Shown here: piece by piece, positions 28,229 through 49,660 of the stretch
How the letters are laid out: each line of letters starts with the position of its first letter
How positions within the stretch are numbered: the stretch's first letter is position 1
Source: Actinomycetota bacterium
Lineage (GTDB): Bacteria; Actinomycetota; CADDZG01; JAHWKV01; JAOPZY01
Length of the DNA: 64,000 nt
Assembly: GCA_025963875.1 (NCBI GenBank)
Contig: JAOPZY010000260.1
Span: 583 to 64,582, forward strand
Direction of reading: 5' to 3'
Program-made: the position numbers and the translations under genes
The notes under the pieces: model-generated
Database searches by the model: none
What the model saw: only the letters and a program-made list of their open reading frames with translations
Told to the model about the DNA's origin: nothing

Positions 28229-28466
28229 CCGACCAGTCCGACCAGTCTTCGGCCGGCCCCCAATCGGCGATAGCCGCGAGCGACAGCTCGCCCTGGTCGA
28301 GCGGGAGCCGCTCCCAGATTTCAGACTCGACTTCGCTGGCCAGGCGGAGGAGGTGACGGCGGACAGCGTCGCGCAGGATCTCCGAGCGATCCACGGCCAG
28401 CCGGTCCGCCCATGCCTGCAATTCCGTGGCTACGGCCTCGTCAACCCGGAAGCTCAGCATTGTCAT
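28215..28466 (-). CDS. mazE: MazE-like antitoxin (RHH/CopG family)
   Basis: Short protein directly upstream of mazF and overlapping it, with an acidic C-terminus. A TATCAT -10 ends 6 nt before its ATG. Confidence 0.6.
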   Translation of the reverse strand: MTMLSFRVDEAVATELQAWADRLAVDRSEILRDAVRRHLLRLASEVESEIWERLPLDQGELSLAAIADWGPAEDWSDWSDAQR

Positions 28467-28560: not shown

Positions 28561-28625
28561 GGGTTGGGGTAGATCGGGGAAACCCAACCTGCTAGACTGG
28601 GATGAGGTTAGGGTAACCTAACCTT
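28561..28625. promoter_or_regulatory. Two palindromic elements upstream of sufB: GGGTTGGG-N14-CCCAACC and AGGTTAGGGTAACCTAACCT
   Basis: Seen directly. They lie about 90-150 nt upstream of the sufB start and are candidate operators for a SufR-like or other regulator. Confidence 0.3.
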
Positions 28626-30172: not shown

Positions 30173-31396
30173 ATGGGGTTTGACAAAGAGCACGTCGAGA
30201 ATCTGAGCCGCGCCTTGGATGAGCCTTCCTGGCTCACCGAGCGCCGCTTGGAGGCCTGGGGCTACTTCGAGAAGCTGGAGCTGCCCAGGGAAAAGGACGA
30301 GCCGTGGCGCTACACCGATCTCCGGCGCCTCGGCTTTGATCTCGACGCCTTCTCGCCGCTGGAGCCCAACCCCCACGACGCTGGGCTGGCGCTCGAGCGT
30401 GACCCCAAGCTCGAGGAGCGCGGCGTGGTGCTCCTGCCGCTCTACAACGCCATCCAGACCCGTCCCGAGCTTGTCCAGCGTTACCTGCTCAGCCAGGGCA
30501 ACCCGGGCCAGGACATCTTCACGGCGCTGCACACCGCCCTCTTCTCCGGCGGCACCTTCCTCTACGTGCCCCGGGGCGTGGACGTGGACATCCCGGTCGA
30601 GGCCACCCGCACCCTGTCGCAGGGTGGCGTGGGGATCTTCCCGCACACCCTCGTGGTAGTGGAGGAGGGGTCCTCCGTTGTCTTCATCGACCGGTACCGC
30701 TCCGACAACCTCACCCAGCCGAGCCTGTCCGATGCCGGCGTCGAGATCGTCGCCGGCGCGGGCTCCAGCGTCACCTTCGTCGCCATCCAGGAGTACGGGC
30801 GGGGGGTCTGGCACTTCGGCACGCAGCGTGCTCTCCTCGGCAGGGATGCGTCGTTGCAGAGCCTGGTCGTGACCCTCGGGGCCAGCTTCTCCCGGGCGCA
30901 GGTCGAGACGACCATCGCCGGCGAGCACGGCGACGTCCAGATGCTCGGCGTCTACTTCGCCGAGGCCGACCAGCACTTCGACATGCGCACGCTGCAGGAC
31001 CACGCGGCCCCCCGCAGCACCTCGGACCTGCTCTACAAGGGGGCGTTGAAGGACCACTCGCACACCGTGTACTCGGGCCTCATCCGGGTGCAGCGCAACG
31101 CCGAGAAGACCGATGCCTACCAGGCCAACCGCAACCTGGTGCTGTCGGACCATGCGAAGGCCGACTCCAAGCCCGAGCTCGAGATCCTGAACAACGACGT
31201 CCGCTGCACCCACGGGTCGACCGTCGGCCAGGTGGACGACGAGCAGCTCTTCTACCTCGAGTCCCGGGGCATCTCCCATGACGACGCGCAGCGCCTCATC
31301 GTCGAGGGGTTCTTCGAGGACGTCATCAACCGCGTGCGGGTCGAGGCGGTTCGCAACGTGCTCCACGACGCCATTGCACGGAAGCTGGCGGGCTGA
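30173..31396 (+). CDS. sufD: Fe-S cluster assembly protein SufD
   Basis: SufB paralog at the SufD position between sufB and sufC. Confidence 0.9.
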   Translation: MGFDKEHVENLSRALDEPSWLTERRLEAWGYFEKLELPREKDEPWRYTDLRRLGFDLDAFSPLEPNPHDAGLALERDPKLEERGVVLLPLYNAIQTRPELVQRYLLSQGNPGQDIFTALHTALFSGGTFLYVPRGVDVDIPVEATRTLSQGGVGIFPHTLVVVEEGSSVVFIDRYRSDNLTQPSLSDAGVEIVAGAGSSVTFVAIQEYGRGVWHFGTQRALLGRDASLQSLVVTLGASFSRAQVETTIAGEHGDVQMLGVYFAEADQHFDMRTLQDHAAPRSTSDLLYKGALKDHSHTVYSGLIRVQRNAEKTDAYQANRNLVLSDHAKADSKPELEILNNDVRCTHGSTVGQVDDEQLFYLESRGISHDDAQRLIVEGFFEDVINRVRVEAVRNVLHDAIARKLAG

Positions 31397-31400
31397 GGCC

Positions 31401-31754
31401 ATGAGCCCCATGAGCTCATTGGGGAGCGACGACTGGCAGCTCGTGGCCCACGTTTTCGACGTGAAGCCCGGGCAGGTCATCAAGGTTGTGGTGGGGAAGG
31501 ACCCGGTCTGCCTCGGCAACGTCGACGGCGAGTTCCTGGCGATCTACGACATCTGCAGCCACGAGTACGTCGAGCTGCACGAGGGCTGGCTGGAGGGCGA
31601 CGAGGTGGAGTGCCCCCAGCACGGGTCGAAGTTCTCCATGCGTACCGGGGCCGTACGGGGACTGCCGGCCACCAAGCCCGTGCCCGCGTACGAGACCAAG
31701 GTCGAGGGCGAACACGTCTACGTCCGGGGGCCTGTCCCCGTTTCTTCTTCCTGA
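31401..31754 (+). CDS. Rieske (2Fe-2S) domain protein of the actinobacterial suf operon
   Basis: CxH...CxxH boxes (CSHEYVELHEG ... CPQHGSKF). Confidence 0.8.
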   Translation: MSPMSSLGSDDWQLVAHVFDVKPGQVIKVVVGKDPVCLGNVDGEFLAIYDICSHEYVELHEGWLEGDEVECPQHGSKFSMRTGAVRGLPATKPVPAYETKVEGEHVYVRGPVPVSSS

Positions 31755-31768: not shown

Positions 31769-32563
31769 ATGGCTGAGCCGATCCTGGTGGTCGAGGACCT
31801 CCACGCGACGGTCGAGGGCAAGGAGATCCTGCGGGGGGTTGACCTCAAGATCCTGCCCGGCGAGATCCACGCCATCATGGGCCCGAACGGGTCCGGAAAG
31901 TCCACGCTCGCCAACGTCCTCATGGGCAAGCCCGGCTACGAGATCGCCCAGGGCCGCGTCGTCTACAAGGGCGAGGACCTGAGCGGCCTGGCACCCGAGG
32001 AGCGGGCCCGCAAGGGCATCTTCCTGGCATTCCAGAACCCCCTCGAGATCCCCGGCGTGTCGGTCGTCAACTTCCTGCGGACCGCCTACAACGCCAGCCG
32101 GCCCGACAAAACCTTGGGGGCAATGGAATTCCGTAAGTACCTGCAGACCAAGATGGACATGCTCGGGGTCGGCAGCGAGCTCATCAACCGCTACGTCAAC
32201 CAGGGGTTCTCCGGCGGCGAGCGCAAGCGGTCCGAAGTGCTGCAGATGGCGGTGCTCGACCCGGAGCTGGCGGTCCTCGACGAGACCGACACCGGGCTCG
32301 ACATCGACGCCCTGCGGGAGGTCGCCGCCGGCGTCATGAAGGTCCACAACGACAGGCGCGGCATCCTCATCATCACCCACTACCAGCGGATCCTGAACTA
32401 CATCGAGCCCACGTTCATCCACGTCCTTCTCGGCGGCCGCATCGTGCGGGAGGGCGGCAAGGAGCTCGCGCTCGAGCTGGAGGCGAAGGGCTACGAGCAG
32501 TTCCGGGCCGACGCCGGGCTTCCCGACTCCGCCCCGCTGACCGACGAGGCGCCCGCCAAGTAG
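31769..32563 (+). CDS. sufC: Fe-S cluster assembly ATPase SufC
   Basis: Walker A GPNGSGKST, signature FSGGERKR, Walker B LDETDTGLD. Confidence 0.95.
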   Translation: MAEPILVVEDLHATVEGKEILRGVDLKILPGEIHAIMGPNGSGKSTLANVLMGKPGYEIAQGRVVYKGEDLSGLAPEERARKGIFLAFQNPLEIPGVSVVNFLRTAYNASRPDKTLGAMEFRKYLQTKMDMLGVGSELINRYVNQGFSGGERKRSEVLQMAVLDPELAVLDETDTGLDIDALREVAAGVMKVHNDRRGILIITHYQRILNYIEPTFIHVLLGGRIVREGGKELALELEAKGYEQFRADAGLPDSAPLTDEAPAK

Positions 32564-32581
32564 GTGGACAAGGGCCAACGC

Positions 32582-32620
32582 AAAACCCCCGCCGCAGAGC
32601 ACCGCGGCGGGGGTTTTGCT
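32582..32620. terminator. Rho-independent, probably bidirectional terminator between convergent sufC and the phosphodiesterase gene
   Basis: AAAA-CCCCCGCCGC-agagcacc-GCGGCGGGGG-TTTT: a perfect 10-bp GC stem flanked by A and T tracts. Confidence 0.7.
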
Positions 32621-32633
32621 TTCTCCTGATTGG

Positions 32634-34349
32634 TCAGCCTTCGAAGCCAGGCAGGACCTGGGTGTGCTCGATGCGGACGGCGTCGAGCTTGTACGGGTTC
32701 AGTCCGAGGGCCGCGAGGACCGTCGGCGCGACCTGGGCGGTGTCCACCCTCTCGTCGACGACGTTGCCGCCGCCGTTGCCGTGCCCGCCGGTGAGGCGAG
32801 CGCCGTTGACGACGATCAGGGCGACGTGGGTATCGTCCGTCGCGAAGCCGCCGTGCTCGGCCACCTTGGCGCCACTGCCGGTGTAGATGGTTCCGGGGAC
32901 AGGCTGGACGATGAGGTCCGGTGTCCTGGGGTCGACCAGCGGGCTGTTGAAGCGATCGGCCAGGGCCTTGCCGGACAGGACGTACTGGACCTTGGCGGTG
33001 TTGGCCCCCGCCTTGTCCGCCAGCAGGGCGTTGACGGCCGTCGTCACCTGCGACTGGTTCTTCAGCCACATCAGGGAGATGTCGTCGTCGGTGGTCTGGG
33101 CGATGGCGACGCCGGCGTTGGTGACCACGTTTGCCTCGGCGTGACCGACCTTGGCCAGCTTCGACGGGTCGATCGGGGACTGCCCGTGCTTGGCCGTGAC
33201 GATGATGTCGGTCGAGCTGAGCTTGTTCCTGGCCTTCAGCTCCGCCACCATCTTGCCGAGCGCTCCATCGACGAAGCTCACGGCGCCCGAGAGCTGTGGC
33301 GTGAACTGAAGGGTGGTGGGCTCGTAGCCGCCGGGGAAGTAGTTCGGGTCGCAGCCCGGCGCGTTGTTGCTGCGCACGCACGACAGCTGCGGGTCGACGA
33401 GCTTCTGCCCGACACTCACCGACTGGAAGTTCATGCCGAAGATTGCGGGCGTGCCCACCTGCTTCGTGCCTGCCGAGTTGAGCCCGTCGATCTGGTTCAG
33501 GATCGCGTCGACCTTGATCTCGTCATAGGCCGAGGTGTCGCCGACCTTGTCCGTGATGAAGGGGCCGTTGTTGTCTCCCGTCGGGTTGGGGAGCGGGAAG
33601 GTGACCGTGTTGCCGCGGGTGTCGACCAGGGAGGGCGGGATGATGTCGGCGTTGATCTCGGTCATGAACTTGTCGTCGACCGCGTTGGCCGTGCCGTGCC
33701 CGCTCACCATCACGTTGGCCGAGGGGTGCTTGTCCGCCCATGCCGTGCGGAGACCGGCCTGGTGGGCGACGCTGAACATCGAGTTCGACCGGAGGTAGTC
33801 GTTCGGGGCCACGGGCACACACTTGCCGCCGACCAGCGCGCGCGGGAGCTGGGCCGGGTCGATGGACTCGTTGAGGATGGTCCGGCTCCCGATCCCGCCG
33901 TTGGCGGTGCTCGGGGCGTTGATGTCGAGGTTCTCGAAATACTGCATCTCGGCCCCGGGAGGCCCGGAGCAGTCCTGGACCGTCCCGGTCGGCAGCTGGG
34001 CCGGAGGTGTGAACATCGTCCGGTCGTAGCTGTCGTCGTAGTAGACGCCGCTCAGCTTGGGTGTGGCGCCCGTCGTGAGTGCCACCACGCCCGGCGATGA
34101 GTCGGAAGGCGTCGATGTCGACACGTTCGAGTACGAGGTGCCGTTGGCCATCAAGCTCGCAATGGTGGGACACAGGTTTGCCGCCATGCATTTGGTCACA
34201 TCCGAGGCGTGCAGGCCATCCACGCTGATCAAGAGCACGTGGTGAGCCGGTTCGGCGTTCGCAATGGCGGTGGCGCCCGCCACCGCCGTTGCGGTCAGCG
34301 ACATCACGCTCAGGCCGACAAGCGCCGAGCGGGGCAGTCGGTGTCTCAT
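32634..34349 (-). CDS. Secreted type I phosphodiesterase / nucleotide pyrophosphatase (alkaline-phosphatase superfamily, NPP-like)
   Basis: Signal peptide, then HHVLLISVDGLHASDV metal-ligand motif typical of NPP/AlkP-core enzymes. About 570 aa mature. The start is set at MRHRLPRSALVGLSV. Confidence 0.7.
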   Translation of the reverse strand: MRHRLPRSALVGLSVMSLTATAVAGATAIANAEPAHHVLLISVDGLHASDVTKCMAANLCPTIASLMANGTSYSNVSTSTPSDSSPGVVALTTGATPKLSGVYYDDSYDRTMFTPPAQLPTGTVQDCSGPPGAEMQYFENLDINAPSTANGGIGSRTILNESIDPAQLPRALVGGKCVPVAPNDYLRSNSMFSVAHQAGLRTAWADKHPSANVMVSGHGTANAVDDKFMTEINADIIPPSLVDTRGNTVTFPLPNPTGDNNGPFITDKVGDTSAYDEIKVDAILNQIDGLNSAGTKQVGTPAIFGMNFQSVSVGQKLVDPQLSCVRSNNAPGCDPNYFPGGYEPTTLQFTPQLSGAVSFVDGALGKMVAELKARNKLSSTDIIVTAKHGQSPIDPSKLAKVGHAEANVVTNAGVAIAQTTDDDISLMWLKNQSQVTTAVNALLADKAGANTAKVQYVLSGKALADRFNSPLVDPRTPDLIVQPVPGTIYTGSGAKVAEHGGFATDDTHVALIVVNGARLTGGHGNGGGNVVDERVDTAQVAPTVLAALGLNPYKLDAVRIEHTQVLPGFEG

Positions 34350-34613
34350 GGTTCCTCCTTCGGTCAGGGGCCGCGATGCCGGCCACGAACGGAGAGGAGT
34401 GGGCTCGGATGCCACCCCCCGATCGGCGCAGCCGGACCGGGGGTTCATGGGACAGGCGCGCAACCTCCCACCCCCGAGCTCAAGTACGCCTTGAGACTCG
34501 AACGTAGCAACGACCCTTGAACGAATCGTGAACGGCGCGTGACGGGAGGCCGTCATTCTCCTGAGAGTCTGCGCGCAGCGCTCCAGGCGAGACAGCAAGG
34601 TGCACCGGCCGAC

Positions 34614-34626
34614 GATGCTATGATGC
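34614..34626 (+). promoter_or_regulatory. Second copy of GATGCTATGATGC with the -10 TATGAT ending 6 nt before the vapB ATG; predicted leaderless promoter
   Basis: Identical 13-mer and identical spacing to the site at 27163-27175. Confidence 0.45.
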
Positions 34627-34630
34627 TCCC

Positions 34631-34885
34631 ATGCGTACCACCGTGACGCTGGACCCCGACGTCGAGGCGCTGATCAAGTCGGCTATGGCCGAGCAGCACC
34701 TGACCTTCAAGGATGCGGTGAACCAGGCGATCAGGGCCGGACTGTCTCCACGGCGGAGAGAGCCATTCCGACAGCGGACCTTCGACCTCGGCTTCCGTCC
34801 GGATATCCCCTACGACAAGGCGCTGCAGCTGGCGGCGGCCGTCGAGGGCGAGGAGATCGTGCGCAAGCTGTCGTTGGGAACGTAA
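34631..34885 (+). CDS. vapB: VapB-type antitoxin
   Basis: Small protein (MRTTVTLDPDVEALIKSAMAEQHLTFKDAVNQAIR) directly upstream of vapC. Confidence 0.65.
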   Translation: MRTTVTLDPDVEALIKSAMAEQHLTFKDAVNQAIRAGLSPRRREPFRQRTFDLGFRPDIPYDKALQLAAAVEGEEIVRKLSLGT

Positions 34886-34896
34886 GTCGCCTGTCG

Positions 34897-35322
34897 ATGG
34901 TCATTGTCGATGCCAATGTGCTGCTCTACGCCGTCAACGGGGCTTCGCCCCACCACCTGGCAGCCAAGGGATGGGTCGAGGGGGCCCTCGGCGGCGACGA
35001 GCCGGTGGGTTTCGCCTGGGTCGTGCTCCTCGCGTTCCTGCGCCTGGTCACGCTCCCGGCCGTGTTCCCGAAGCCTCTCGACGTCGACGTGGCGCTCGAA
35101 GTCGTAGAAGCCTGGCTGTCTGCTCGGGCTGCCACAGTCGTGCAGCCCACTGCTCGGCATGCCGCAGTCCTCGGAGGCTTCCTCAGAGCGTCGGGCACAG
35201 CGGGCAACCTCGTCACGGATGCACATCTGGCAACGCTCGCCGTCGAATACGGGGCTCGCCTCTGTACCTTTGACCGAGACTTCGCCCGCTTCGCCGGTGT
35301 GCGCTCCTTCGCGCCTGCCTGA
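34897..35322 (+). CDS. vapC: VapC PIN-domain toxin (ribonuclease)
   Basis: MVIVDANVLLYAV...LVTDAHLATLAVEYGARLCTFDRDF gives the canonical PIN acidic residues. Confidence 0.8.
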   Translation: MVIVDANVLLYAVNGASPHHLAAKGWVEGALGGDEPVGFAWVVLLAFLRLVTLPAVFPKPLDVDVALEVVEAWLSARAATVVQPTARHAAVLGGFLRASGTAGNLVTDAHLATLAVEYGARLCTFDRDFARFAGVRSFAPA

Positions 35323-35356
35323 CGTTCCGGGCCGGAACGCCTGGTAAGTCTGGGCA

Positions 35357-35399
35357 GTTTCCGTCAAAAAGTGTCCCCACGGCCCTTTTTGACGGAAAC
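35357..35399. terminator. Perfect 15-bp inverted repeat (GTTTCCGTCAAAAAG / CTTTTTGACGGAAAC, 13-nt loop) between convergent vapC and the CMD gene
   Basis: Seen directly. The 3-prime arm abuts the CMD gene stop codon. Confidence 0.5.
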
Positions 35400-35968
35400 T
35401 ATGAAGCGCGGCTCCCGAGACCTCGCTTGGCGAAAACCTGCGCCGCGGCAGCCATGCCGTTCAGCGCCGCCGGGAACCCTGCGAAGACCACCATGAGCAG
35501 GATGGTCTCGACCACGTCGGCGGGGCTCCCTCCGGCGTCGAGCAGGGCGTGGATGCGCAGGAGCAGCTCCTGGTGGCCGGGTGTGCCGAGGGCGGTGAGC
35601 CGTGCCACCGCAACGATCTCCCGGTCCTGGGCGGTGAGGGCACCCGTCGTTTGGCCGGACCGGGCTTCGTTGATCTCCGGCTCCATGGCGCCGGCGTTGC
35701 GGGCGCCCTGGGCGTGGAAGCGCAGTTGCGGGGTGGCATTGCCGAGAGCAGCGAGGGCCGCGACCGCAGCCAGCTCGCGCCGGCGCAGGCTCAGCCCCGG
35801 ACGGGCGTAGACGTCGCCGTAGGCGAACTCGACGAGGTAGCGCCCGAGGTCCGGCGCCACGCCGGCCAGGTCCTGCAGCACCTGCGGATCCTCTGCCGCC
35901 GCAACCTCCCGCAGGATCGCCACTCCGCGCTCGTAGCGGTCTTTATCCGGCGCCTTGAGGGGCGCCAT
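35399..35968 (-). CDS. Carboxymuconolactone decarboxylase (CMD) family protein
   Basis: About 189 aa matching the CMD/AhpD-like fold. The 501-aa track ORF is a fusion with antisense pstB noise. Confidence 0.65.
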   Translation of the reverse strand: MAPLKAPDKDRYERGVAILREVAAAEDPQVLQDLAGVAPDLGRYLVEFAYGDVYARPGLSLRRRELAAVAALAALGNATPQLRFHAQGARNAGAMEPEINEARSGQTTGALTAQDREIVAVARLTALGTPGHQELLLRIHALLDAGGSPADVVETILLMVVFAGFPAALNGMAAAAQVFAKRGLGSRAS

Positions 35969-36006
35969 TGCTTTCACTCGGCGCCTTGAGGGGCGCCTGG
36001 GCGGGC

Positions 36007-36897
36007 TCAACCCATCTGGCCGGTCACGTAGGCCTTCGTGCGGAGGTCCATCGGCACCTCGAAGACATGGTCGGTCTGACCGTACTCGATCAGCTCGCCC
36101 GTCCGCCGGTCGTCCCCGAGGAGAAAGACGGCCGTGTAGTGCGACACCCGCCGCGCCTGGAACATGTTGTGCGTGACGAGGCACACCGTGACGTCGGCGG
36201 CGAGACGGGTGATGAGCTCCTCGATCTTGGCGGTCGCAATGGGGTCGAGGGCGGAGCACGGCTCGTCCATCAGCAGCACCTCCGGCTCGACCGCGAGTGC
36301 CCGTGCGATGCAGAGGCGCTGCTGCTGGCCGCCCGAGAGCACCCCGGCGGGGGAGTGCAGCCGGTCCTTCACCAGTTCCCACAGGGCGGCATGGTGGAGG
36401 GCCGACTCGGCGGCCTCCCTGAGGATGGACTTCGAGCGGACACCGTTGAAGCGCAGGCCCGATACGACGTTCTCGAAGATGCTCAGGTTCGGGAACGGGT
36501 TGGGGCGCTGGAAGACCATGCCGACGCGGCTTCGGACGAGCTCGGGCTGGGTGTCCCTGGCGTACACGTCGAGCTCGCCGATCCGGATGGTGCCGGTGAC
36601 GGATCCGCCGGCGTCGTCGTGGAGGCGAGTGATGGCCCGCAGCAGCGTGGTCTAGCCGCAGCCCGACGGGCCGACCAGCGCCGTCACGCGGTTGCGGGCG
36701 AGGTCGAAGGTCACGTCGCGCACGACCTGGTGGGCGCCGAAGGCAACGCCCACGCCGGCGAGGGTGACGGCGCTGCCCGTATCCGGGAGTGGGTCCGGGA
36801 GCTTCGGCTTCGTTGCCGGCCCTGAAGGGGCGGCCTTGTCCGCTGGCCATGCAGCCGGCAGCTCCACCTCGGGTTCGTTTGTCACGGTGTCCGTCAT
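36007..36897 (-). pseudogene. pstB: pstB, phosphate ABC transporter ATP-binding protein, interrupted by an in-frame TAG replacing the Walker-A lysine codon (GPSGCG*TT)
   Basis: One reading frame is continuous from 36897 to 36007 except for a TAG at about 36652-36654. The N-terminal part ends ...ALVGPSGCG and the C-terminal part continues TTLLRAI... with the signature LSGGQQQRL and Walker B LLMDEP. Confidence 0.7.
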
Positions 36898-36916
36898 CGC
36901 ACACTCCTGAACTCGG

Positions 36917-37918
36917 TCAACGGGATCTGCCCGCGAGCCGCCCCGACACCATACGGGCTGCGACGCTCAGGAGCAGCACGAGGGCCAGCAGCACGAAGGC
37001 GGTCCCCCAGGCGACCTGCTGCGCCTCGGGGAACGCCTGGGTCCCGTCGGCGTAGATCACCAGCGGCATCGCGGCGGTGGGCTGCAACGGCGACAGATTG
37101 AACAGCTGGCTGCCGATGGAGGTGAAGAGCAGGGGGGCCGTCTCGCCGACGGCCCTGGCGATGGCGAGCAGGCTCCCCGTGACGAGCCCCGCGACCGCTC
37201 CCCGGAGAACCACGGATCTGGCCACCCTCGAGCGCCGGGCGCCCAGGGCCAGGGCGGCCTCCCGCAGGTCGACGGGCACCGCCAGCATGGCGGCCTCGCT
37301 CGCCCGGATCACGATGGGCAGCATGAGCACCGCCAGGGCGAAGCTGCCCGCGAGCGCGGAGAAATGGCGCAGGGGCTCCACCAGCACGGCGTAGGCGAAG
37401 ATGCCGATGGCGATGGACGGCACCCCCGTGAGGACGTCGGCCCCGAAGCGGATCGTGGCGGCGAGGCGCCCCTTGCGTTCCAGGAGGAACAGCGCCGCCG
37501 CGATGCCGACCGGGACGGCCATCAGCGCCGCCAGGCCCACGGTGAGCGCCGATCCGGCGATGGCATTGCGGATACCGCCCCCCGGGATGCCGGGCGGGGT
37601 GGGGTCGTGGGCGAAGAAGCCGAGTGTGACGGCATGGATGCCCCGCGAGGTCGTGTAGGCGAGGAGCGCCACCAGCGGGACCAGGCAGATGCCGACGGCG
37701 AGAGCGCACAGCGCGTGGGAAAGTCGGGTGGCAGCACGCCGGCGGGGAAGGCTCCGGCGGGCCGAGTTCCGGATCTTCTCGCGCCGTGCGGTTGCCCCCG
37801 CGGCCAGGTGCGCGGGCAGGGGGTCCGCGGGCAGCAGTTCCCCCGAGGCGCCCCTCAAGGCGCCGTATACAGTCTCGACCACGACGTCGCCGGTGTCGGT
37901 GGTCCGAAGTGTCGTCAC
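36917..37918 (-). CDS. pstA: Phosphate ABC transporter permease PstA
   Basis: Polytopic permease with the EAA-like loop (ASEAAMLAVPVDLREAALALGA). Its GTG start overlaps the pstC stop in a GTGA junction. Confidence 0.85.
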   Translation of the reverse strand: MTTLRTTDTGDVVVETVYGALRGASGELLPADPLPAHLAAGATARREKIRNSARRSLPRRRAATRLSHALCALAVGICLVPLVALLAYTTSRGIHAVTLGFFAHDPTPPGIPGGGIRNAIAGSALTVGLAALMAVPVGIAAALFLLERKGRLAATIRFGADVLTGVPSIAIGIFAYAVLVEPLRHFSALAGSFALAVLMLPIVIRASEAAMLAVPVDLREAALALGARRSRVARSVVLRGAVAGLVTGSLLAIARAVGETAPLLFTSIGSQLFNLSPLQPTAAMPLVIYADGTQAFPEAQQVAWGTAFVLLALVLLLSVAARMVSGRLAGRSR

Positions 37919-38967
37919 GCCGTCACCAAACGGGCAGCCTGTCGCCTGCGACGGCGGAGCAGGATCTGGCCCAGCGCGTTCACCGCCACGCTGATGGCGA
38001 ACAGGTAGACGACGACGGCGATCACGGCGCTGCGCTGCAGCCCGGGGGCCGCCTCCCCGAACGTGTTGATGACGGCGGAGCCGAGGGTGGCGCCGGGCGA
38101 CAGCAGGGTGGTCGACACGCTGTGGGGCAGGGCAAAGCGGTTGCCGATCACCATGGCGACGGCGATGGTCTCGCCCAGCGCACGGCCCATCGCGAGGGTG
38201 ACCGCTGCCTCGATGCCCGAACGGGCGCCGGGGATCACCGCCTTCCTGGTCACCTGCCAGCGGGTTGCCCCGAGCGCGCGGGCCGCCTCCCGTTCGGACA
38301 CGGCCACGCCGGAGAGGGCGGTGCGGGAGAGGGCGACAACGGTCGGCAGGATCATCACCGCCAGCACGACGCTCGCCAGCAGCAGGCTGGAGCCGAGCGG
38401 GGGACCCGCGAAGACCAGGCGTCCCAGCACCGGCAGCCTCGACAGCCAGGGCTCGACGTGATGCTGGAACAGCGGGACGAGGACGAGCAGCCCCCACAGC
38501 CCCACGACGATGCTGGGCACCGCGGCGATGAGGTCGATCAGCACCGACAGCGGCTGTGACAGCCGGCGGGGCGCCATCTCGGAGAGGTAGGCGGCGCTGC
38601 CGACCCCGATGGGGACGGCAAGCAGGAGCGCGAGCAGCGTGGTGACCAGCGTGCCGACGACGAAAATGCCTGCCCCGTAGACCTTCCGGCTGTCGTCCCA
38701 GGTCCCCGACCACAGGAACGTGAGCCCGGAGTGGCGGAACGCCTCGCTCGACCCGGTCACGAGCGTGACCACAAGGCCGAGGAGCACCGAGGCGAACACC
38801 AGCGCCCCCAGCCAGCGCAGGAGGGTGTAGGCACGGCCCCCACCCCGGGCGCGGTGGCGTTGGACCGCTTCCCGTACCCCGGCGACGGGGACCCGGTGCT
38901 CGGGCGGGGACTCCTCCAGCAGCGTCGGGGCGGCCACCGGCTCCCCGCCCCGGTCGAAGACCTTCAC
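37915..38967 (-). CDS. pstC: Phosphate ABC transporter permease PstC
   Basis: Polytopic permease with the EAA loop (SEREAARALGATRWQ). Its GTG start overlaps the pstS stop. Confidence 0.85.
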   Translation of the reverse strand: MKVFDRGGEPVAAPTLLEESPPEHRVPVAGVREAVQRHRARGGGRAYTLLRWLGALVFASVLLGLVVTLVTGSSEAFRHSGLTFLWSGTWDDSRKVYGAGIFVVGTLVTTLLALLLAVPIGVGSAAYLSEMAPRRLSQPLSVLIDLIAAVPSIVVGLWGLLVLVPLFQHHVEPWLSRLPVLGRLVFAGPPLGSSLLLASVVLAVMILPTVVALSRTALSGVAVSEREAARALGATRWQVTRKAVIPGARSGIEAAVTLAMGRALGETIAVAMVIGNRFALPHSVSTTLLSPGATLGSAVINTFGEAAPGLQRSAVIAVVVYLFAISVAVNALGQILLRRRRRQAARLVTA

Positions 38968-40109
38968 GAGAAGAGCGGCTGACCACTCGCGGTCTGGAGG
39001 GTGAGCAGGGTCGTGTGCGCCAGCGTGACGGCGTTGTCGGGCAGCGGGGCGTACCCGAGCGGGGCTGCCTGTTGCTGCCCGGTGGTCGTGACCCAGTCGA
39101 AGAGCTTCCCGAGCACGATCCCCACGTTCGTGGACGCCTGCTTCTGGTAGAGGAGGGCCCAGCTGAAGTTGGCGAGGGGGTAGGTGGCGGCCCCCCCGCC
39201 GTTGACGATGTTGAAGTTCGCCGCGCTCAGGTTCGTCGCCTGGGCGCCGGCGGCTTTGATGGAGTCCAGCGTCGGCGCCACGAATGCGCCGGAGGCGTTC
39301 TTCAGCGCCACGTTGTTGAACTTGCTCTTCTGCGCGAAGGCGTACTCCACGTAGCCGATGGCGCCCTGGGTCTGCTGGATGTAGCTGGCCACGCCGGTGT
39401 TGAGCTGCTGGCCCACTCCGATGCTGGCGATCGGCCAGCGAGTGGCGGCCTTGCTGCCCGCCTTGGACGTCCAGGCGGTGCCGCCCGTGGCGAGGAGGTA
39501 CTGGTCCAGGTCGTAGCCCGGCCCGGACGAGTCGGCCCGGTGCACGGGCACGATGGCGAGGTGCGGAAGCTTCACCCCGGTGTTGAGCCCCGCGATGGCC
39601 GGGTCGTCCCAATTCGTGACGGCGCCGGTGTAGATGCCGGCGAGCGTCGGCCCGTCGAGCTTCAGCCCGGTGTCGAGGCCCGGGATGTTGTAGCTGAGCG
39701 CCACCCCACCGAGGTCCACCGGTACCTGGAGAATGGTCCCGGCTGTGCCGGTGGCCGGGGACGGCATCGGGACCTCGGACTGGCCGAACTGGACGGTGTT
39801 CTGCTGGACGTCGGTGATGCCGACGCTGCTGCCCACCGGCGAGTAGTCGACGGACACGCCCTTGTTGGCCTGGTTGTAGTAGTAGAAGGCGCGCTCGTAG
39901 AAGGGCTGGATGGAGTTGGCTCCGGCACCGGTCAACTTGAGCGTTGGCGTCCTCGTGTCGCAGTCGCCGCCCAGCGTGCCCCCCGGCGCCGGCGAAGAGG
40001 TCGATGACGAGCAGGATCCCGACGAGCCGGCGTTGGTCGACGTCGTGCTGGAGGACGTGCACGCGACCGCCAGGAGACCTGCAGCGCAGGCGATCGCCCC
40101 GAGGCGCAT
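38964..40109 (-). CDS. pstS: Phosphate-binding lipoprotein PstS
   Basis: Lipobox LLAVAC and a PBP-superfamily phosphate-binding fold. The start is set at MRLGAIACAAG. An alternative upstream M is at 40142. Confidence 0.85.
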   Translation of the reverse strand: MRLGAIACAAGLLAVACTSSSTTSTNAGSSGSCSSSTSSPAPGGTLGGDCDTRTPTLKLTGAGANSIQPFYERAFYYYNQANKGVSVDYSPVGSSVGITDVQQNTVQFGQSEVPMPSPATGTAGTILQVPVDLGGVALSYNIPGLDTGLKLDGPTLAGIYTGAVTNWDDPAIAGLNTGVKLPHLAIVPVHRADSSGPGYDLDQYLLATGGTAWTSKAGSKAATRWPIASIGVGQQLNTGVASYIQQTQGAIGYVEYAFAQKSKFNNVALKNASGAFVAPTLDSIKAAGAQATNLSAANFNIVNGGGAATYPLANFSWALLYQKQASTNVGIVLGKLFDWVTTTGQQQAAPLGYAPLPDNAVTLAHTTLLTLQTASGQPLFS

Positions 40110-40253
40110 CCGGTGTCGGAGGTGGTGCGGCGGGCCTTCCATGGTTGCGTGGCTCAACGGCCTGCTCCTCTCGTCGCGCTGGACCGCGGGAGTCGGGGGG
40201 ACGGAAGCGCCCGCCACGACGCGGCGGGACCTTACATCATTAGAGCAGTGGAT

Positions 40254-40282
40254 ATCGTAAAAATACTACAAAGGCCTGTCAA
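40254..40282 (-). promoter_or_regulatory. Candidate sigma-70-type promoter for pstS (-35 TTGACA, 17-nt spacer, -10 TACGAT)
   Basis: Read on the minus strand: TTGACAggcctttgtagtattttTACGAT. It lies 110-140 nt upstream of the pstS start in an AT-rich patch. Confidence 0.4.
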
Positions 40283-40337
40283 CCGCCCCGCCGGGTGGGC
40301 TATTCCCCCAACTTGCCAGGGATCTGGCTCTGGAGTA

Positions 40338-40362
40338 CCCTATTTTCAACGTTGTTATAGGG
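40338..40362. promoter_or_regulatory. Nested palindrome CCCTATtttCAACGTTGttATAGGG about 14 nt upstream of the SBP56 gene start; candidate operator
   Basis: Outer 6-bp arms are perfect (CCCTAT/ATAGGG). The inner 8-bp palindrome CAACGTTG is perfect. The GGGAAAGGAG RBS follows. Confidence 0.35.
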
Positions 40363-40375
40363 GAAAGGAGTCAAA

Positions 40376-41785
40376 GTGGCGGATCCCACGTTCTACCGTT
40401 CGGCGAAGACGGCAGCCGCCGCACCGCCCGAACGCCTCGCCTACGTCGCTACGCTCAACACGCCGGGACAGGATGGGGAGGCCCGCCCTGACGCCATCGT
40501 GGTACTCGACACTGACCCCCAATCGCCGTCCTACGGCAAGATCGTGGGGCGCGTCGACATGACCCATACCGGCGACGAGCTCCACCACTTCGGCTGGAAC
40601 GCCTGCAGCGCTTGCCTCTGCCACATCGGGTCCAACGGCCACGCCGGGCACGACCATCACCACGACGCCGAACGGCGCTACCTCGTCGTCCCCGGCCTGC
40701 GCTCGTCGCGCATCTACATCATCGACACCAAGCCGGACCCGACCAAGCCCACCATCGTCAAGACCATCGAGGCCGACGAACTGGCGGCCAAGACCGGCTA
40801 CAGCCGGCCCCACACCTCGCACTGCGGCCCGGATGGCATCTATATGAGCGCTCTCGGTGCCGCCGACGGCAACGCGCCCGGCGGGATCTTCGTCCTCGAC
40901 CCCGACACCTTCGAGATCCGGGGCGCCTGGGAGCAGGAGCGGGGGCCGCAGACCCTCGCCTACGACTTCTGGTGGCACCTCAACCACGACATATTGATCA
41001 GCAGCGAGTGGGGCACGCCGAACATGGTCGAGGGCGGCCTCGATCCCTCGCTCATCGGGCAGTTCGGCCACCAGCTCCACGTCTGGGACCTGCCCAACGC
41101 CAAGCACCTCCAGACCATCGACCTCGGCCCCGAACAGCAGATGGTCCTCGAGCTGCGCCCCTCGCACGACCCGGACAAGACGTACGGCTTCGTGGGCGTC
41201 GTCGTCTCCACCGCCGACCTGTCCGCATCGGTGTGGACCTGGTACCGCGGCGACGACGGCGAGTGGAAGGCCGTGAAGACCATCGAGATCCCTGCCGAGC
41301 CGGCCCCCGCGGAGCAGCTTCCCCCCGCCCTGCAGCCCTTCGGGGCCGTGCCGCCGCTCATCACCGACATCGATCTGTCCGTCGACGACAAGTTCCTCTA
41401 CGTCTCCTGTTGGGGCACCGGCGAGTTCCGCCAGTACGACGTGTCGGACCCGTTCAACCCCAAGCTCACCGGCTCCGTCCACCTCGGTGGCATCGTGCAC
41501 AAGGGCGCCCACCCGACGGCCGGTCCGCTCAACGGCGGCCCGCAGATGGTGGAGATCAGCCGGGACGGCAGGCGCGTCTACGTGACGAACTCGCTGTACG
41601 CCTCCTGGGACGCGCAGTTCTACCCGGAGGGCATCAAGGGCTGGATCGTGAAGCTCGACGCCGACCCCAACGGCGGCATCGCCGCCGACCCGGACTTCTT
41701 CGTACCGTTCGAGGGCGAGCGCCCGCACCAGGTCCGCCTCGAGGGTGGCGACGCCTCGTCCGACTCATATTGTTATTCGTCGTAG
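40376..41785 (+). CDS. Selenium-binding protein (SBP56) family protein / putative methanethiol oxidase homolog
   Basis: 469 aa with full-length similarity to the SBP56 family (beta-propeller, conserved His/Cys cluster CSACLCHIGSNGHAGHDHHHD). Confidence 0.8.
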   Translation: MADPTFYRSAKTAAAAPPERLAYVATLNTPGQDGEARPDAIVVLDTDPQSPSYGKIVGRVDMTHTGDELHHFGWNACSACLCHIGSNGHAGHDHHHDAERRYLVVPGLRSSRIYIIDTKPDPTKPTIVKTIEADELAAKTGYSRPHTSHCGPDGIYMSALGAADGNAPGGIFVLDPDTFEIRGAWEQERGPQTLAYDFWWHLNHDILISSEWGTPNMVEGGLDPSLIGQFGHQLHVWDLPNAKHLQTIDLGPEQQMVLELRPSHDPDKTYGFVGVVVSTADLSASVWTWYRGDDGEWKAVKTIEIPAEPAPAEQLPPALQPFGAVPPLITDIDLSVDDKFLYVSCWGTGEFRQYDVSDPFNPKLTGSVHLGGIVHKGAHPTAGPLNGGPQMVEISRDGRRVYVTNSLYASWDAQFYPEGIKGWIVKLDADPNGGIAADPDFFVPFEGERPHQVRLEGGDASSDSYCYSS

Positions 41786-41833
41786 CCGGGTACCGGCGCA
41801 ACCGAACAGGAAGGTCAGGAGTACGATACGCCC

Positions 41834-43063
41834 ATGGATGCACGAGAGGTTCGCAAGGACTTTCCGATTCTGGACCAGGAGGTAAACGGCAAGCCCCTGT
41901 CCTACCTGGACAACGCCGCCACCTCGCAGAAGCCCCGCCAGGTCATCGATGAACTGAAGCGGTTCTTCGAGGAGGACAACGCCAATGTGCACCGCTCGGT
42001 GCACACCCTGGGGGAGCGCGCCACCGTGCTCTACGAGGGCGCCCGGGCCAAGGTCGCCGAGTTCATCGGGGCCCCCAGCCCTCGGGGCATCATCTTCACC
42101 AAGTCCGCCACCGAGGGCCTGAACCTGCTCGCCTACGCCTGGGCGAGGCACCGCCTGTCCGAGGGCGACGAGATCATCACCACCGAGATGGAGCACCACT
42201 CGAACATCGTGTCCTGGCAGCTCGCGTGCCGGGACACCGGCGCGACGCTCAGGGCGATCCCGGTCCGGGACGGGGCGACGCTCGACCTCGACGCCTACGA
42301 AAGGATGCTCTCCAACCGGACCCGCATCGTGACGGTGGGCCACGTGTCGAACGTCCTCGGCACGATCAACCCCATCGCCGACATCGCCGAGAAGGCCCAC
42401 GACGCCGGGGCGATCGTCGTCTGCGACGGAGCACAGGCGGCGCCGCACCTCCCCGTGGACGTGGGTGCCCTCGGCTGCGACTTCTACGTGGGCACCGGCC
42501 ACAAGATGTGCGCCCCGACCGGCATCGGCTTCCTCTGGGGCCGGGAGGCGCTCCTCGAGGACATGGAGCCCTTCCATGGCGGCGGCGACATGATCAGCGA
42601 CGTCTGGATCGACCACTCGACGTGGAACGAGATCCCGTACAAGTTCGAAGCGGGCACGCCACCGGTCGCCGATGCCATCGCGCTGGGGACTGCCATCGAC
42701 TACCTCAACGCCATCGGCATGAAGGCCATCCGGGAACACGAGATCGAGCTCACGCGGTACGCCCTGGAGCGTCTCCGGGAGGTGCCGGAGATCCAGATCT
42801 ACGGCCCCACCGACCCGGAGCTCAAGGGTGGCGTGGTGTCCTTCAATCTCGGTGACATCCATGCGCACGACGTGGGCACGATCGTCGACAGCTGGGGGGT
42901 CGCCATCCGGGCGGGCCACCATTGCTCGAAGCCGCTGATGCGTAAGCTTGGGATAGCGGCCTCGGCCAGAGCGTCGTTCTATCTGTACAACGTCGAAGAG
43001 GAGGTAGATCGGTTGGTTGAGGCACTGGGTGACGTGACGCGGCTGATGGGGGGTAGGTCATGA
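41834..43063 (+). CDS. sufS: Cysteine desulfurase SufS
   Basis: Class V aminotransferase with PLP-Lys context (TGHKMCAP) and the catalytic Cys loop (RAGHHCSKP). Confidence 0.9.
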   Translation: MDAREVRKDFPILDQEVNGKPLSYLDNAATSQKPRQVIDELKRFFEEDNANVHRSVHTLGERATVLYEGARAKVAEFIGAPSPRGIIFTKSATEGLNLLAYAWARHRLSEGDEIITTEMEHHSNIVSWQLACRDTGATLRAIPVRDGATLDLDAYERMLSNRTRIVTVGHVSNVLGTINPIADIAEKAHDAGAIVVCDGAQAAPHLPVDVGALGCDFYVGTGHKMCAPTGIGFLWGREALLEDMEPFHGGGDMISDVWIDHSTWNEIPYKFEAGTPPVADAIALGTAIDYLNAIGMKAIREHEIELTRYALERLREVPEIQIYGPTDPELKGGVVSFNLGDIHAHDVGTIVDSWGVAIRAGHHCSKPLMRKLGIAASARASFYLYNVEEEVDRLVEALGDVTRLMGGRS

Positions 43064-43503
43064 GCGGCCTCGACGAACTCTACAAGGAAGTGATCCTCGA
43101 CCACTACCGGTCGCCTCGCAACCGCGGAAAGCTGGAGCCTTCGGACTTCGACCTGCACCGGGACAACCCCCTGTGCGGCGACGAGGTCCACCTCTACGGC
43201 CACATCGAGGACGGCAAGCTGGTCGGCGTCGCCTTCGAGGGCAAGGGCTGCTCGATCTCCCAGGCCTCGACCTCGATGATGACCGAGCGGGTCAAGGGCG
43301 TGAACCTGGACAACGCCGAGGAGCTGGCGCACCTGTTCAAGCGCCTGATGCAGGGGGAGTCACTGGCCGACGACGAGCGCCTGGGCGACCTTGCGGCGTT
43401 GCAGGGCGTCCAGAAGTACCCCGTACGGATCAAGTGCGCCCTCCTGGGCTGGAACACCCTCCTGGAGGGCCTGAAGGCGTACAAAGAAAAGCATGAAGGA
43501 TAA
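43060..43503 (+). CDS. sufU: Fe-S cluster assembly sulfur-transfer/scaffold protein SufU
   Basis: NifU-like N-terminal domain with Cys ligands (NPLCGDEV, GKGCSIS, IKCALLGWN). Overlaps the sufS stop. Confidence 0.9.
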   Translation: MSGLDELYKEVILDHYRSPRNRGKLEPSDFDLHRDNPLCGDEVHLYGHIEDGKLVGVAFEGKGCSISQASTSMMTERVKGVNLDNAEELAHLFKRLMQGESLADDERLGDLAALQGVQKYPVRIKCALLGWNTLLEGLKAYKEKHEG

Positions 43504-43596: not shown

Positions 43597-43635
43597 GAAA
43601 AGCAGGGGGCCTGAGCCCCCTGCTTTGTGGCTTTG
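43597..43635. terminator. Rho-independent terminator downstream of sufU (GCAGGGGGC-ctga-GCCCCCTGC-TTTGTGGCTTTG)
   Basis: Perfect 9-bp GC stem with AAAAG upstream and a T-rich tail. Confidence 0.65.
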
Positions 43636-45034: not shown

Positions 45035-45099
45035 AGTGGATCTCCCTTCTAGGTGTGCGGGAGTTCCGGCTCCCGGCGCTTGCAACAAAGGACGAACCC

Positions 45100-46701
<1,602 letters not shown>

Positions 46702-46829
46702 GGTCCGCCTCCTACCTAGGTTTCTGCTGGAAAGTTACTGAAAGTATTGTTATCGGCAGATTATGAGGATCTTTCACATGTTAAGATTGCTCAAAGATTT
46801 CGATACAGTGAATTTTTAGGAAAGTTGTC

Positions 46830-48269: not shown

Positions 48270-48337
48270 AGCCGCCTGGGGTGGCAGCAAAAGACCACAC
48301 CATGGGTGGAAAATCCCAGCCACCCCGAGGCGAATCC

Positions 48338-48703: not shown

Positions 48704-48751
48704 GTGCGGCCATGATCATGCCCGATCTGCCCGCTCAACGTGGTGCAGGTG

Positions 48752-49036: not shown

Positions 49037-49064
49037 GCTCTTCTCCTTTCGGGGCGATTCCTCT

Positions 49065-49092: not shown

Positions 49093-49152
49093 TTGTCAAG
49101 AGAAAAGGGCTTCATCGAGACCGGGAAAAATGCCGAGGAAAGGTCTGACATC

Positions 49153-49659: not shown

Positions 49660-49660
49660 C

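Follow-up and report, generated by a model that had tools for sequence, protein, structure and literature searches.

Gene organization of the locus

The suf genes of the window (the whole stretch of 64 kb analysed here) form two groups, sufB-sufD-Rieske-sufC and sufS-sufU, which are separated by 9.27 kb of other genes (Table 1). Reading from sufC, this gap holds a reverse-strand NPP gene, vapBC, a CMD gene and pstBACS on the reverse strand, and a forward-strand SBP56 gene, after which sufS restarts. The Rieske-type orthologues of the relatives match the Pfam Rieske model, and sufS and sufU overlap by 4 nt. The hairpin between sufC and NPP has 12 GC pairs in its stem, is structured on both strands (z = -4.5 for the + and -5.9 for the - strand) and is also kept in the relative L087. 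In pstB, an in-frame TAG at 36652-36654 replaces the Walker-A lysine codon (GPSGCG*TT), which is AAG in three relatives (L087, L106, and L100). In L087, the CMD start overlaps the pstB stop. These results confirm much of what the sequence-only reading had proposed for the locus: the separation of the two suf groups, the strong bidirectional terminator after sufC and the one after sufU, the identity and order of the cargo genes (Pfam and NCBIfam), their combination of phosphate-scavenging genes with a toxin-antitoxin module, and the broken pstB.

Table 1. Features of the suf locus and its surroundings (positions in the window).
Feature	Position	Strand	Basis or remark
PemK/RHH toxin-antitoxin pair, upstream of sufB	27920-28466	-	
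Operator-like perfect palindrome AGGTTAGG-GTAA-CCTAACCT	28605-28624	+	just 3' of a CTAGACT -10-like box, 5' of sufB
sufB	28715-30145	+	Pfam SUFBD_core, 292 bits; clade relatives 85-100% identical
sufD	30173-31396	+	Pfam SUFBD_core, 282 bits
Rieske-type [2Fe-2S] ferredoxin gene	~31401-31754	+	translation; NCBIfam Rieske ferredoxin models
sufC (ABC ATPase)	31769-32563	+	Pfam ABC_tran; orthologues 77-98% identical
Bidirectional intrinsic terminator, convergent sufC and NPP	32580-32619	both	16-bp stem, then T-tail
NPP/Phosphodiest-family enzyme	32634-34349	-	Pfam PF01663, 87 bits; signal-peptide-like N-terminus
vapB-like gene, 84 aa	34631-34885	+	
vapC, PIN, 141 aa	34897-35322	+	PIN domain, 55 bits
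CMD-family protein, predicted last gene of the pst unit	35399-35968	-	Pfam CMD, 79 bits
pstB, broken	36007-36897	-	one in-frame TAG
pstA	36917-37885	-	Pfam BPD_transp_1
pstC	37915-38967	-	Pfam BPD_transp_1
pstS	38964-40142	-	Pfam PBP_like_2
Divergent pstS/SBP56 intergenic region	40143-40375		
pstS promoter-like site TTGACA-17-TACGAT	40254-40282	-	sole sigma-70-type match in 28-44 kb
Promoter-like box TTCAACGTTGTTATAGG, upstream of SBP56	40345-40361	+	common to the split-clade relatives examined
SBP56-family protein (methanethiol-oxidase family)	40376-41785	+	Pfam SBP56, 626 bits
SBP56-sufS spacer, 48 nt	41786-41833	+	holds conserved sufS leader GGAGTACGATACG at 41818-41830
sufS	41834-43063	+	TIGR01979, 596 bits (cutoff 475)
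sufU	43060-43503	+	TIGR01994, 165 bits (cutoff 92.5)
Bidirectional terminator, sufU and convergent isocitrate lyase gene	~43602-43630	both	terminator and structure scans
Second derived block, ~15.5 kb	43721-58863		Pfam
Former downstream neighbours of sufU	58973-63748		PadR, SufR-like HTH_20 (59884-60651), rhodanese, DUF309, ThiI (- strand)

The palindrome upstream of sufB occurs once in the window. It is conserved in L087, L093, L089, and L090, and with one mismatch in L096, and was not found upstream of sufS or SBP56. The earlier reading had also pointed out that sufU has no sufT behind it and that toxin-antitoxin genes stand before sufB in place of sufR. The absence of both genes stands, as neither SufT nor a Streptomyces-type SufR gave a tblastn match anywhere in the 64 kb, and the PemK/RHH pair is indeed located upstream of sufB. 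However, it does not hold as a trait related to the split: in both relatives checked, the unsplit L096 and the small-insert L089, sufR and sufT are likewise missing at these positions, and their absence is thus not a consequence of the split.

Downstream of sufU lies a second derived block, which was absent from the earlier reading. It encodes isocitrate lyase (ICL) and malate synthase (MS), both on the reverse strand, a RamB-like regulator, MaoC, PhaC, two 3HCDH proteins, pyruvate dehydrogenase E1, pyruvate kinase, and a patatin. Its first part, from ICL to PhaC, is common to L098, L100, and L007 over the length covered by their fetched contigs; L089 and L096 showed none of its genes. The genes located after sufU in these latter two relatives match the window beyond the block (tblastn, 49-82% identity). 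With a bootstrap value of only 73% for the relative placement of L089 and L090, the ICL-MS block may represent one gain, or may have been lost in L089.

Distribution of the split among relatives

We used SufD identity to the window as a distance marker for the relatives. sufC and sufS are adjacent in L096 (57% identity) and in both L011 and L013 (~50%). The same applies to 70+ loci from Streptomyces, Micromonospora, and other actinobacteria, so that the arrangement assumed as normal for actinobacteria in the earlier reading holds in the loci fetched. Because these outgroups (SufD identity of at most 57%) and the other Actinomycetota have the two genes adjacent, the split is the derived state, in agreement with the proposal that an insertion or rearrangement broke up a contiguous sufB-D-Rieske-C-S-U operon. 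All relatives with a SufD identity of at least 72% and a contig extending past sufC are split, with non-suf genes at this position, and a neighbour-joining tree of SufB, SufD, and SufC recovers the split clade at 100% bootstrap.

Most relatives are short metagenomic contigs, and the full gap is seen only in the window, L087 together with L001, L106, L089, and L090/L098. The cargo of the window is shared by relatives at 93-99% SufD identity. Gene order is identical in L087 (94%), the same up to the contig end in L101 (99%), and the same apart from missing vapBC in L106 (93-94%), where the NPP-side sequence is conserved up to the start point of vapBC in the window. Farther out, L089 (75%) has a 1.2-kb insert with a 70-aa open reading frame and a PNPOx gene between sufC and sufS-sufU. 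L090/L098 (72%) carry 9.1 kb of glycerol/dihydroxyacetone genes in the order glyoxalase-dhaKL-glpK-...-dhaM between sufC and sufS-sufU-PAP2-ICL-MS-...-MaoC-PhaC, with flanks as in the window, where NPP...SBP56 lies between sufC and sufS-sufU-ICL-MS-...-MaoC-PhaC. Individual cargo genes come and go as well. NPP follows sufC in L087, L101, L102, L106, L107, L121, and L181/L182, and is missing in L093, the sister of L181; vapBC is present in L087, L101, and L093; SBP56 is full-length in L087, L106, and L001, reduced to a C-terminal remnant (aa 346-468) in L007, and lacking in L100. pstBACS stands beside sufS already in L100 (84% SufS identity), and pstA, pstC, and pstS orthologues adjoin sufS in both L100 and L007.

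The composition of the block is native. Its genes have GC3 values of 0.85-0.93 and CAI-like values of 0.67-0.80, inside the reference range of the window, and tetranucleotide correlation is flat across the block. The only atypical gene is the short vapC (GC3 0.76, CAI-like value 0.55). Searches for an integrase, a transposase, or a tRNA, and for direct repeats at the edges of the block, found none. Between the window and L087, the proteins encoded in the block are 84-97% identical, and those of the suf genes 94-98%.

Putative promoters and transcription units

Upstream of sufS, a box of the form cACGgTTG-nTATAG and a leader, GGAGTACGATACG-N3-ATG, are common to L089, L098, L100, and L007. The leader is present in all split-clade sufS genes and absent in the contiguous L096. 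The window has a single copy of the box; here and in L087 it lies 5' of SBP56, with the leader directly before sufS. Its conservation, its position, and its TATAG(N) -10-like core make this box a candidate promoter; a sigma-70 consensus scan of 28-44 kb did not call it. The site detected by that scan, upstream of pstS, is conserved in L100 and L007. In L007, box copies flank the SBP56 remnant, the second lying between the remnant and sufS, an arrangement that a simple insertion scenario does not predict.

The 48-nt spacer between SBP56 and sufS contains no terminator, no significant structure (z = +1.0), no promoter-like match, and no copy of the clade box. Since the box is upstream of SBP56 and not in this spacer, SBP56-sufS-sufU probably form one transcript, and an internal promoter may exist within the 3' end of SBP56. 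The earlier proposal that sufS-sufU depend on a promoter other than that of sufB is supported.

Discussion

Altogether, we consider it likely that one old interruption between sufC and sufS was followed by piecewise remodelling of the gap and by vertical inheritance, leaving three transcription units in the window. The host lineage is an uncultured, high-GC soil member of the Actinomycetota, whose ancestor would have had contiguous sufB-sufD-Rieske-sufC-sufS-sufU, with neither sufR upstream nor sufT downstream, and with its own operator-like palindrome 3' of the sufB promoter. From the box and leader common to split-clade sufS loci, we infer a single interruption in the ancestor of the subclade with at least 72% SufD identity, after which sufS-sufU would have relied on a promoter region of their own and on the characteristic leader. 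Each sublineage would then have remodelled its gap stepwise, arriving at 1.2 kb with PNPOx, at ~9 kb of glycerol/dihydroxyacetone genes or, in that of the window, at NPP, vapBC, CMD-pstBACS and finally SBP56; the absence of vapBC in L106 and of NPP in L093, and the full, cut, or absent SBP56 genes, argue for such piecewise change. As SBP56 lies between the old putative promoter box of sufS and sufS itself, three units are most likely: sufB-D-Rieske-C, ending at the hairpin after sufC; pstS-C-A-B-CMD on the opposite strand; and SBP56-sufS-sufU, which would start between the divergent pstS and SBP56 genes and end at the terminator after sufU. The comparable identities to L087 in block and suf genes, together with native GC3, CAI-like, and tetranucleotide values, suggest that the block is vertically inherited DNA and not a mobile islet.

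The sequence-only reading had likened the block to a small genomic islet. As a recent islet, it would be a phosphate-scavenging and toxin-antitoxin cassette lately inserted into a canonical actinobacterial suf operon, probably by horizontal transfer. The block is indeed non-suf, mostly on the opposite strand, and starts directly after a strong terminator; codon usage of vapBC is atypical, and vapBC and SBP56 vary by small indels between close relatives, which shows that the region is plastic. However, relatives with exactly the arrangement of the window exist (L087, and L101 to its contig end), divergence of the block is comparable to that of its flanks, the split reaches down to 72% SufD identity with varying cargo, and pstBACS already adjoins sufS in L100 (84% SufS identity). 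With the native composition and the lack of detected mobility genes, tRNA, and repeats, a recent islet is largely refuted and very improbable. A chimeric contig is conceivable for metagenome-type data, but it is ruled out, with practically no probability left, by independent assemblies from different samples and sources: the sufC/NPP junction recurs in L087, L088, L101, L102, L106, L107, L121, and L182, the SBP56/sufS junction in L001, L004, and L005, and the whole order across L087, L088, L101, L106, L001, L004, and L005.

Two further alternatives concern the genes next to sufS. The cargo could be held in place by working with SufS/SufU: SBP56 could supply sulfane sulfur to the cysteine desulfurase pair, or handle selenium, as a methanethiol-oxidase-type enzyme, or sufSU could be under phosphate-limitation control through the promoter region shared back-to-back with pstS. 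SBP56 is on the same strand as sufS and 48 nt from it, with no terminator between them; the family comprises Cu-dependent methanethiol oxidases (PMC5739008), of which some reportedly yield sulfane sulfur (PMC10936201). Against this stands a narrow and decaying linkage, with sufSU intact in L007 and L100 despite a remnant or no SBP56, unrelated cargo in other sublineages, and a score of 129 bits against the MtoX equivalog model (cutoff 650); such coupling is thus quite unlikely. A promoter for sufS-sufU in or just before the spacer, independent of SBP56, had also been proposed. The second box of L007 demonstrates that such a placement can exist in the lineage, but the spacer of the window offers just a ribosome-binding leader, and we regard this proposal as unlikely.

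Compared with the sufR-sufBDCSU-sufT operon of Mycobacterium, Streptomyces, and Corynebacterium, the window has the same core of SufB, SufD, SufC, type II SufS, and SufU. Unlike that operon, its cluster is non-contiguous, has a PemK/RHH pair in place of sufR and lacks sufT; as the sufR/sufT difference extends to L096 and L089, it is not split-specific. As in the Streptomyces loci fetched, the distance from sufD to sufC accommodates a small gene, which is the Rieske ferredoxin gene in the window. The candidate operator, AGGTTAGG-N4-CCTAACCT, is unlike the sites reported for SufR, CAAC-N6-GTTG and ACACT-N5-TGTGA (preprint 10.64898/2025.12.26.696629).

The block resembles a classical genomic island as a multi-gene unit joining a toxin-antitoxin module to niche-adaptive phosphate scavenging, but differs from one in composition, in mobility genes, and in its distribution, which is not patchy. 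It also resembles operon fragmentation by insertion or rearrangement with lineage-specific cargo, in which differing content lies between conserved flanks (here sufC and sufS-sufU-ICL-MS), although this cargo is native in composition, consists for the most part of housekeeping-type metabolic operons, and showed no recognisable mobility genes, tRNA target, or repeats. Split suf clusters occur in other bacteria, with sufS (and sufE or sufU) apart from sufBCD. They would share with the window a sulfur-donor pair on a transcription unit separate from the scaffold genes, whereas the separation described here can be dated within one clade, with the old leader of sufS and its candidate promoter box still traceable. 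Judging from the sequences compared, the split is old and inherited clade-wide with differing cargo, an ordinary genome rearrangement rather than a recently acquired island.

Organization of the split suf locus

The window encodes ordinary members of the SufBCD/SufSU-type machinery, which we identified by GC3-guided gene calling together with Pfam and NCBIfam scans. However, the layout departs from the canonical sufR-sufBDCSU-sufT operon of cultured Actinomycetes, as the genes are not contiguous and there is no sufR upstream and no sufT downstream. A gap of 9,270 bp carrying 10 non-suf genes separates sufC from sufS, and a strong terminator follows sufC. These analyses confirm the gene map and the split proposed by a sequence-only reading of this DNA. 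Both junctions of the gap recur, exactly or nearly so, in independent assemblies (NCBI MAGs, JGI, ENA and Logan), and hence the gap is not an artefact. Exact-sequence look-ups with SufC and PstA of the window returned no matching record.

Features of the suf locus and its surroundings (window positions)
Feature	Position	Strand	Remarks
PemK/RHH toxin-antitoxin pair	27920-28466	-	directly upstream of sufB
sufB palindrome	28605-28624
sufB	28715-30145	+	PF01458 SUFBD core, 292 bits
sufD	30173-31396	+	PF01458 SUFBD core, 282 bits
Rieske ferredoxin gene	~31401-31754	+
sufC	31769-32563	+	ABC-type ATPase, PF00005; 77-98% identity to relatives' SufC
Hairpin after sufC	32580-32619		16-bp stem, T-tail
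NPP (Phosphodiest-family enzyme)	32634-34349	-	signal-peptide-like N-terminus
vapB-like gene	34631-34885	+	84 aa; no Pfam match; size and position fit an antitoxin
vapC	34897-35322	+	PIN domain, 55 bits
CMD protein	35399-35968	-
18-nt palindrome, copy 1	35949-35966	-
18-nt palindrome, copy 2	35980-35997	-
pstB	36007-36897	-	interrupted by one in-frame TAG
TAG in pstB	36652-36654	-
pstA	36917-37885	-	intact
18-nt palindrome, copy 3	37847-37864	+
pstC	37915-38967	-	intact
pstS	38964-40142	-	intact
Predicted sufS promoter box	40345-40361
SBP56	40376-41785	+	PF05694, 626 bits; SBP56 family member
sufS	41834-43063	+	TIGR01979, 596 bits (cutoff 475)
sufU	43060-43503	+	sulfur-transfer partner of the SufS cysteine desulfurase; TIGR01994, 165 bits (cutoff 92.5)
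Terminator after sufU	~43602-43630		bidirectional
Second derived block	43721-58863		isocitrate lyase (ICL), malate synthase (MS), RamB-like regulator, MaoC, PhaC, two 3HCDH, pyruvate dehydrogenase E1, pyruvate kinase, patatin
PadR, HTH_20, rhodanese, DUF309 and ThiI genes	58973-63748
ArsR/HTH_20 regulator	59884-60651	+	ARAH and KGRPAKVY motifs; two Cys

The stop codon in pstB replaces the lysine codon of the Walker-A motif (GPSGCG*TT), so that the GxxGxGK(S/T) signature is not intact. The same codon is AAG in three relatives (L087, L106 and L100), and the defect amounts to a single A-to-T change from AAG (Lys) to TAG. Elsewhere the reading frame is preserved, the C-terminal 214 residues share 92-97% identity with PstB of relatives, and the gene of L087 is intact and codes for 304 aa. 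This TAG could mark a pseudogene of very recent origin, vary within the population, or stem from an error in the consensus.

An 18-nt palindrome, GGCGCCCCTCAAGGCGCC, occurs three times in the window, always within the block between sufC and sufS, against a chance expectation of 0.05. Compared with L087, the pair at the pstB/CMD junction amounts to an in-frame duplication of 30 nt.

Conservation of the split among relatives

We mapped the window proteins onto loci fetched from relatives and outgroups, using SufD or SufS identity to the window as a measure of distance. A scan of GTDB species representatives with SufS gave L007 (93%) as the only close relative among the matches listed, the others being at most 59% identical. 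A large protein collection provided SufD relatives graded from 99% down to ~50%, many of them intermediate, and scanning metagenomes with SufD contributed only some 12 further close loci, most of them short. We found that sufC and sufS are adjacent in the fetched loci of Streptomyces, Micromonospora and other actinobacteria, as well as in the lineage outgroups L096 (SufD 57%) and L011/L013 (~50%). Hence, the order sufB-sufD-Rieske-sufC-sufS-sufU is ancestral. Within the clade defined by a SufD identity of at least 72%, non-suf genes follow sufC in every contig that reaches past sufC. In a neighbour-joining tree of SufB+SufD+SufC, this split clade has 100% bootstrap support, and the order of L089 and L090 only 73%.

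Arrangement of the split in relatives of the window
Locus	Identity to window	Arrangement
L101	SufD 99%	window's order up to the contig end, which lies in CMD
L087/L088	SufD 94%	window's order; pstB intact
L106	SufD 93%	window's order minus vapBC
L007	SufS 93%	pstBACS adjoins sufS; C-terminal remnant of SBP56 only
L100	SufS 84%	pstBACS adjoins sufS; no SBP56
L093	SufD 81%	vapBC straight after sufC
L181/L182	SufD 80%	NPP after sufC; sister of L093
L089	SufD 75%	insert of only 1.2 kb: 70-aa protein and PNPOx, opposite strand
L094	SufD 74%	glycerol/dihydroxyacetone genes
L090/L098	SufD 72%	glycerol/dihydroxyacetone genes

The gap of L090/L098, seen whole on one contig, spans 9.1 kb and carries glyoxalase, dhaK, dhaL, glpK, a 988-aa protein, a CCG/Fer4 protein and dhaM. 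It is followed by sufS-sufU, PAP2, ICL, MS, MaoC and PhaC, that is, by the downstream flank of the window. Glyoxalase, the first gene of this cargo, starts 30 nt past sufC (L090 12457-12487; L098 918-948). The fold of this region shows no obvious hairpin and all cargo genes lie on the suf strand, so that, unlike in the window, sufC transcripts may still read through to sufS in this lineage. A more distant locus, L164 (SufD 64%; positions 1-2276), is arranged differently again, as sufD-sufS-sufU-Rieske, and sufS follows sufD without an intervening sufC.

The downstream side of sufU has also been remodelled. PadR, an HTH_20 regulator, rhodanese, DUF309 and ThiI come after sufU, no more than a few genes away, in L089 and the unsplit L096. 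The same genes lie about 15.5 kb past sufU in the window, beyond a second derived block that includes glyoxylate shunt and polyhydroxyalkanoate (PHA) synthesis genes. With derived blocks on both sides, sufS-sufU is a 1.7-kb piece of old backbone between them.

Age and nature of the split

The sequence-only reading suggested an islet-like insertion or rearrangement into the suf operon. In view of the contiguous outgroups, this proposal is correct as to polarity; it is mistaken as to timing and nature. In composition, the block falls within the range of the window, with GC3 of 0.85-0.93, CAI-like values of 0.67-0.80 (0.735 ± 0.07 in the rest of the window) and a tetranucleotide correlation that stays flat throughout; vapC, a short gene, is the one exception. 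No integrase and no recombinase domain was found among the genes of the block, and the window, of high GC content (~68%), contains no tRNA gene. A search for direct and inverted repeats at the block boundaries gave chance-level matches only, the 18-nt palindrome inside the block being the exception. Moreover, block proteins of the window and L087 are 84-97% identical, matching the 94-98% of the suf flanks; secreted NPP and PstS are the fastest evolving. Close relatives do not differ in having or lacking the block as a whole, since it is present in L087 and L106 (93-94%) and L101 (99%) keeps it to the end of its contig. Only sub-parts vary, namely vapBC and SBP56. Altogether, synteny in relatives indicates that the split is old and vertically inherited, with a turnover of cargo in each lineage, rather than a recently acquired islet.

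As for vapBC, a comparison of L106 (3849-4154) with the window (34350-35400) shows that the module is missing from L106, in which the NPP-side sequence is kept up to the point where vapBC starts in the window. The sequence GATGCTATGATGCT precedes vapB both in the window and in L093.

Predicted promoters and operator

The hairpin after sufC is significant on both strands (z -4.5 and -5.9), and a second bidirectional terminator follows sufU. An AGGTTAG...CTAAC hairpin after sufU was dropped, as it is not conserved in relatives. Upstream of sufB, a perfect 8-4-8 palindrome, AGGTTAGG-GTAA-CCTAACCT, unique in the window, follows a -10-like box, CTAGACT, at a short distance. It is kept upstream of sufB in all the clade relatives checked and, with one mismatch, in the contiguous L096. 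We also looked for it near sufS and SBP56, where it would point to shared regulation of both halves, and it was absent there. The palindrome differs from the published SufR sites, CAAC-N6-GTTG and ACACT-N5-TGTGA (preprint 10.64898/2025.12.26.696629). The neighboring PemK/RHH pair is kept in L087 and L093 (83-93% identity), and other genes take its place in L089, L090, L096 and L181.

On the other side of the gap, all the split-clade sufS genes share a leader, GGAGTACGATACG-N3-ATG, and a box, cACGgTTG-nTATAG, with A/T-rich flanks, located 60-100 nt before the start codon. In the window and L087, the box lies immediately upstream of SBP56 and the leader directly before sufS. This box is back-to-back with a pstS promoter-like site, TTGACA-17-TACGAT. 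The 48-nt spacer between SBP56 and sufS (41786-41833), where a sufS promoter had been proposed, contains neither a terminator nor significant structure (z = +1.0). Judging from the position of the box, the predicted sufS promoter likely lies upstream of SBP56 and not in this spacer. The simplest reading of its conservation and position is that SBP56 would have been inserted between a pre-existing sufS promoter and sufS, resulting in an SBP56-sufS-sufU unit. In L007 (3540-4074), the SBP56 remnant has a copy of the box on either side, an arrangement that simple insertion does not predict.

A candidate suf regulator

A tblastn search of the 64-kb window with Streptomyces SufR and SufT found no SufT, and for SufR only an HTH-level match at 59938-60117. 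Neither SufT nor a SufR of the Streptomyces type is thus detectable in the window, and the sequence-only reading had already noted that no sufR precedes sufB and no sufT follows sufU. This absence is independent of the split, since L089 and the unsplit L096 also lack sufR upstream of sufB and sufT after sufU. The SufR match falls in the gene of the HTH_20 regulator, which follows sufU at a distance of 2-4 genes in L089 and L096 and of 16 kb in the window. Comparisons by BLASTP, NCBIfam and PDB link its product to SufR at the HTH level only: similarity to Streptomyces SufR is 33% over 64 aa, confined to the HTH, and the PDB matches are ArsR-family only. SufR-like COG2345 proteins are characterized by a winged HTH, an RRH-type motif, a GRP AT-hook and three conserved Cys ligands (preprint 10.64898/2025.12.26.696629). 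The HTH_20 protein resembles this family in its RRH-like and GRP AT-hook motifs but has only two cysteines. We regard it as a candidate divergent suf regulator.

SBP56 and the sufC-sufS junction

SBP56 proteins are Cu-dependent methanethiol oxidases (PMC5739008). The SBP56 protein of the window scores 129 bits on the MtoX equivalog model (NF052453), far under the cutoff of 650. A homolog search is uninformative on the origin of this gene, because family members from several phyla share at least 70% identity. A functional link between SBP56 and SufS/SufU is conceivable. Three observations weaken this idea: SBP56 has decayed in L007 to the C-terminal ~125 codons (aa 346-468; 3593-3961), L100 lacks the gene, and other sublineages carry unrelated cargo.

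A more far-reaching proposal is that the sufC-sufS junction may serve as a long-lived cargo slot of the clade, in which whole niche-adaptive operons would be swapped between fixed flanks without recognisable mobile-element machinery. The newest arrival would be the methanethiol-oxidase-type SBP56 gene between the sufS promoter and sufS, perhaps recruited as a source of sulfane sulfur (or selenium) for SufS/SufU. Cargo observed at this position comprises genes for phosphate scavenging, genes for the use of glycerol/dihydroxyacetone, and PNPOx. We consider this proposal improbable.

Implications

The event described here is operon fragmentation, which is already known, and not a new kind of system. 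The locus is instructive mainly as a warning and as a modest example of genome evolution, since the gene order of cultured Actinomycetes is not transferable to deep uncultured Actinomycetota. An apparent island in an essential operon turned out, once relatives were compared, to be a split inherited from long ago, with contents that have been replaced since. The analysis also supplies candidate regulatory elements, namely the sufB operator palindrome, the sufS promoter box with its leader, and a two-cysteine SufR-like regulator. For the clade itself, the split indicates that transcription of the SufS/SufU sulfur-donor pair is separable from that of the SufBCD scaffold, a condition that has lasted over long evolutionary time.
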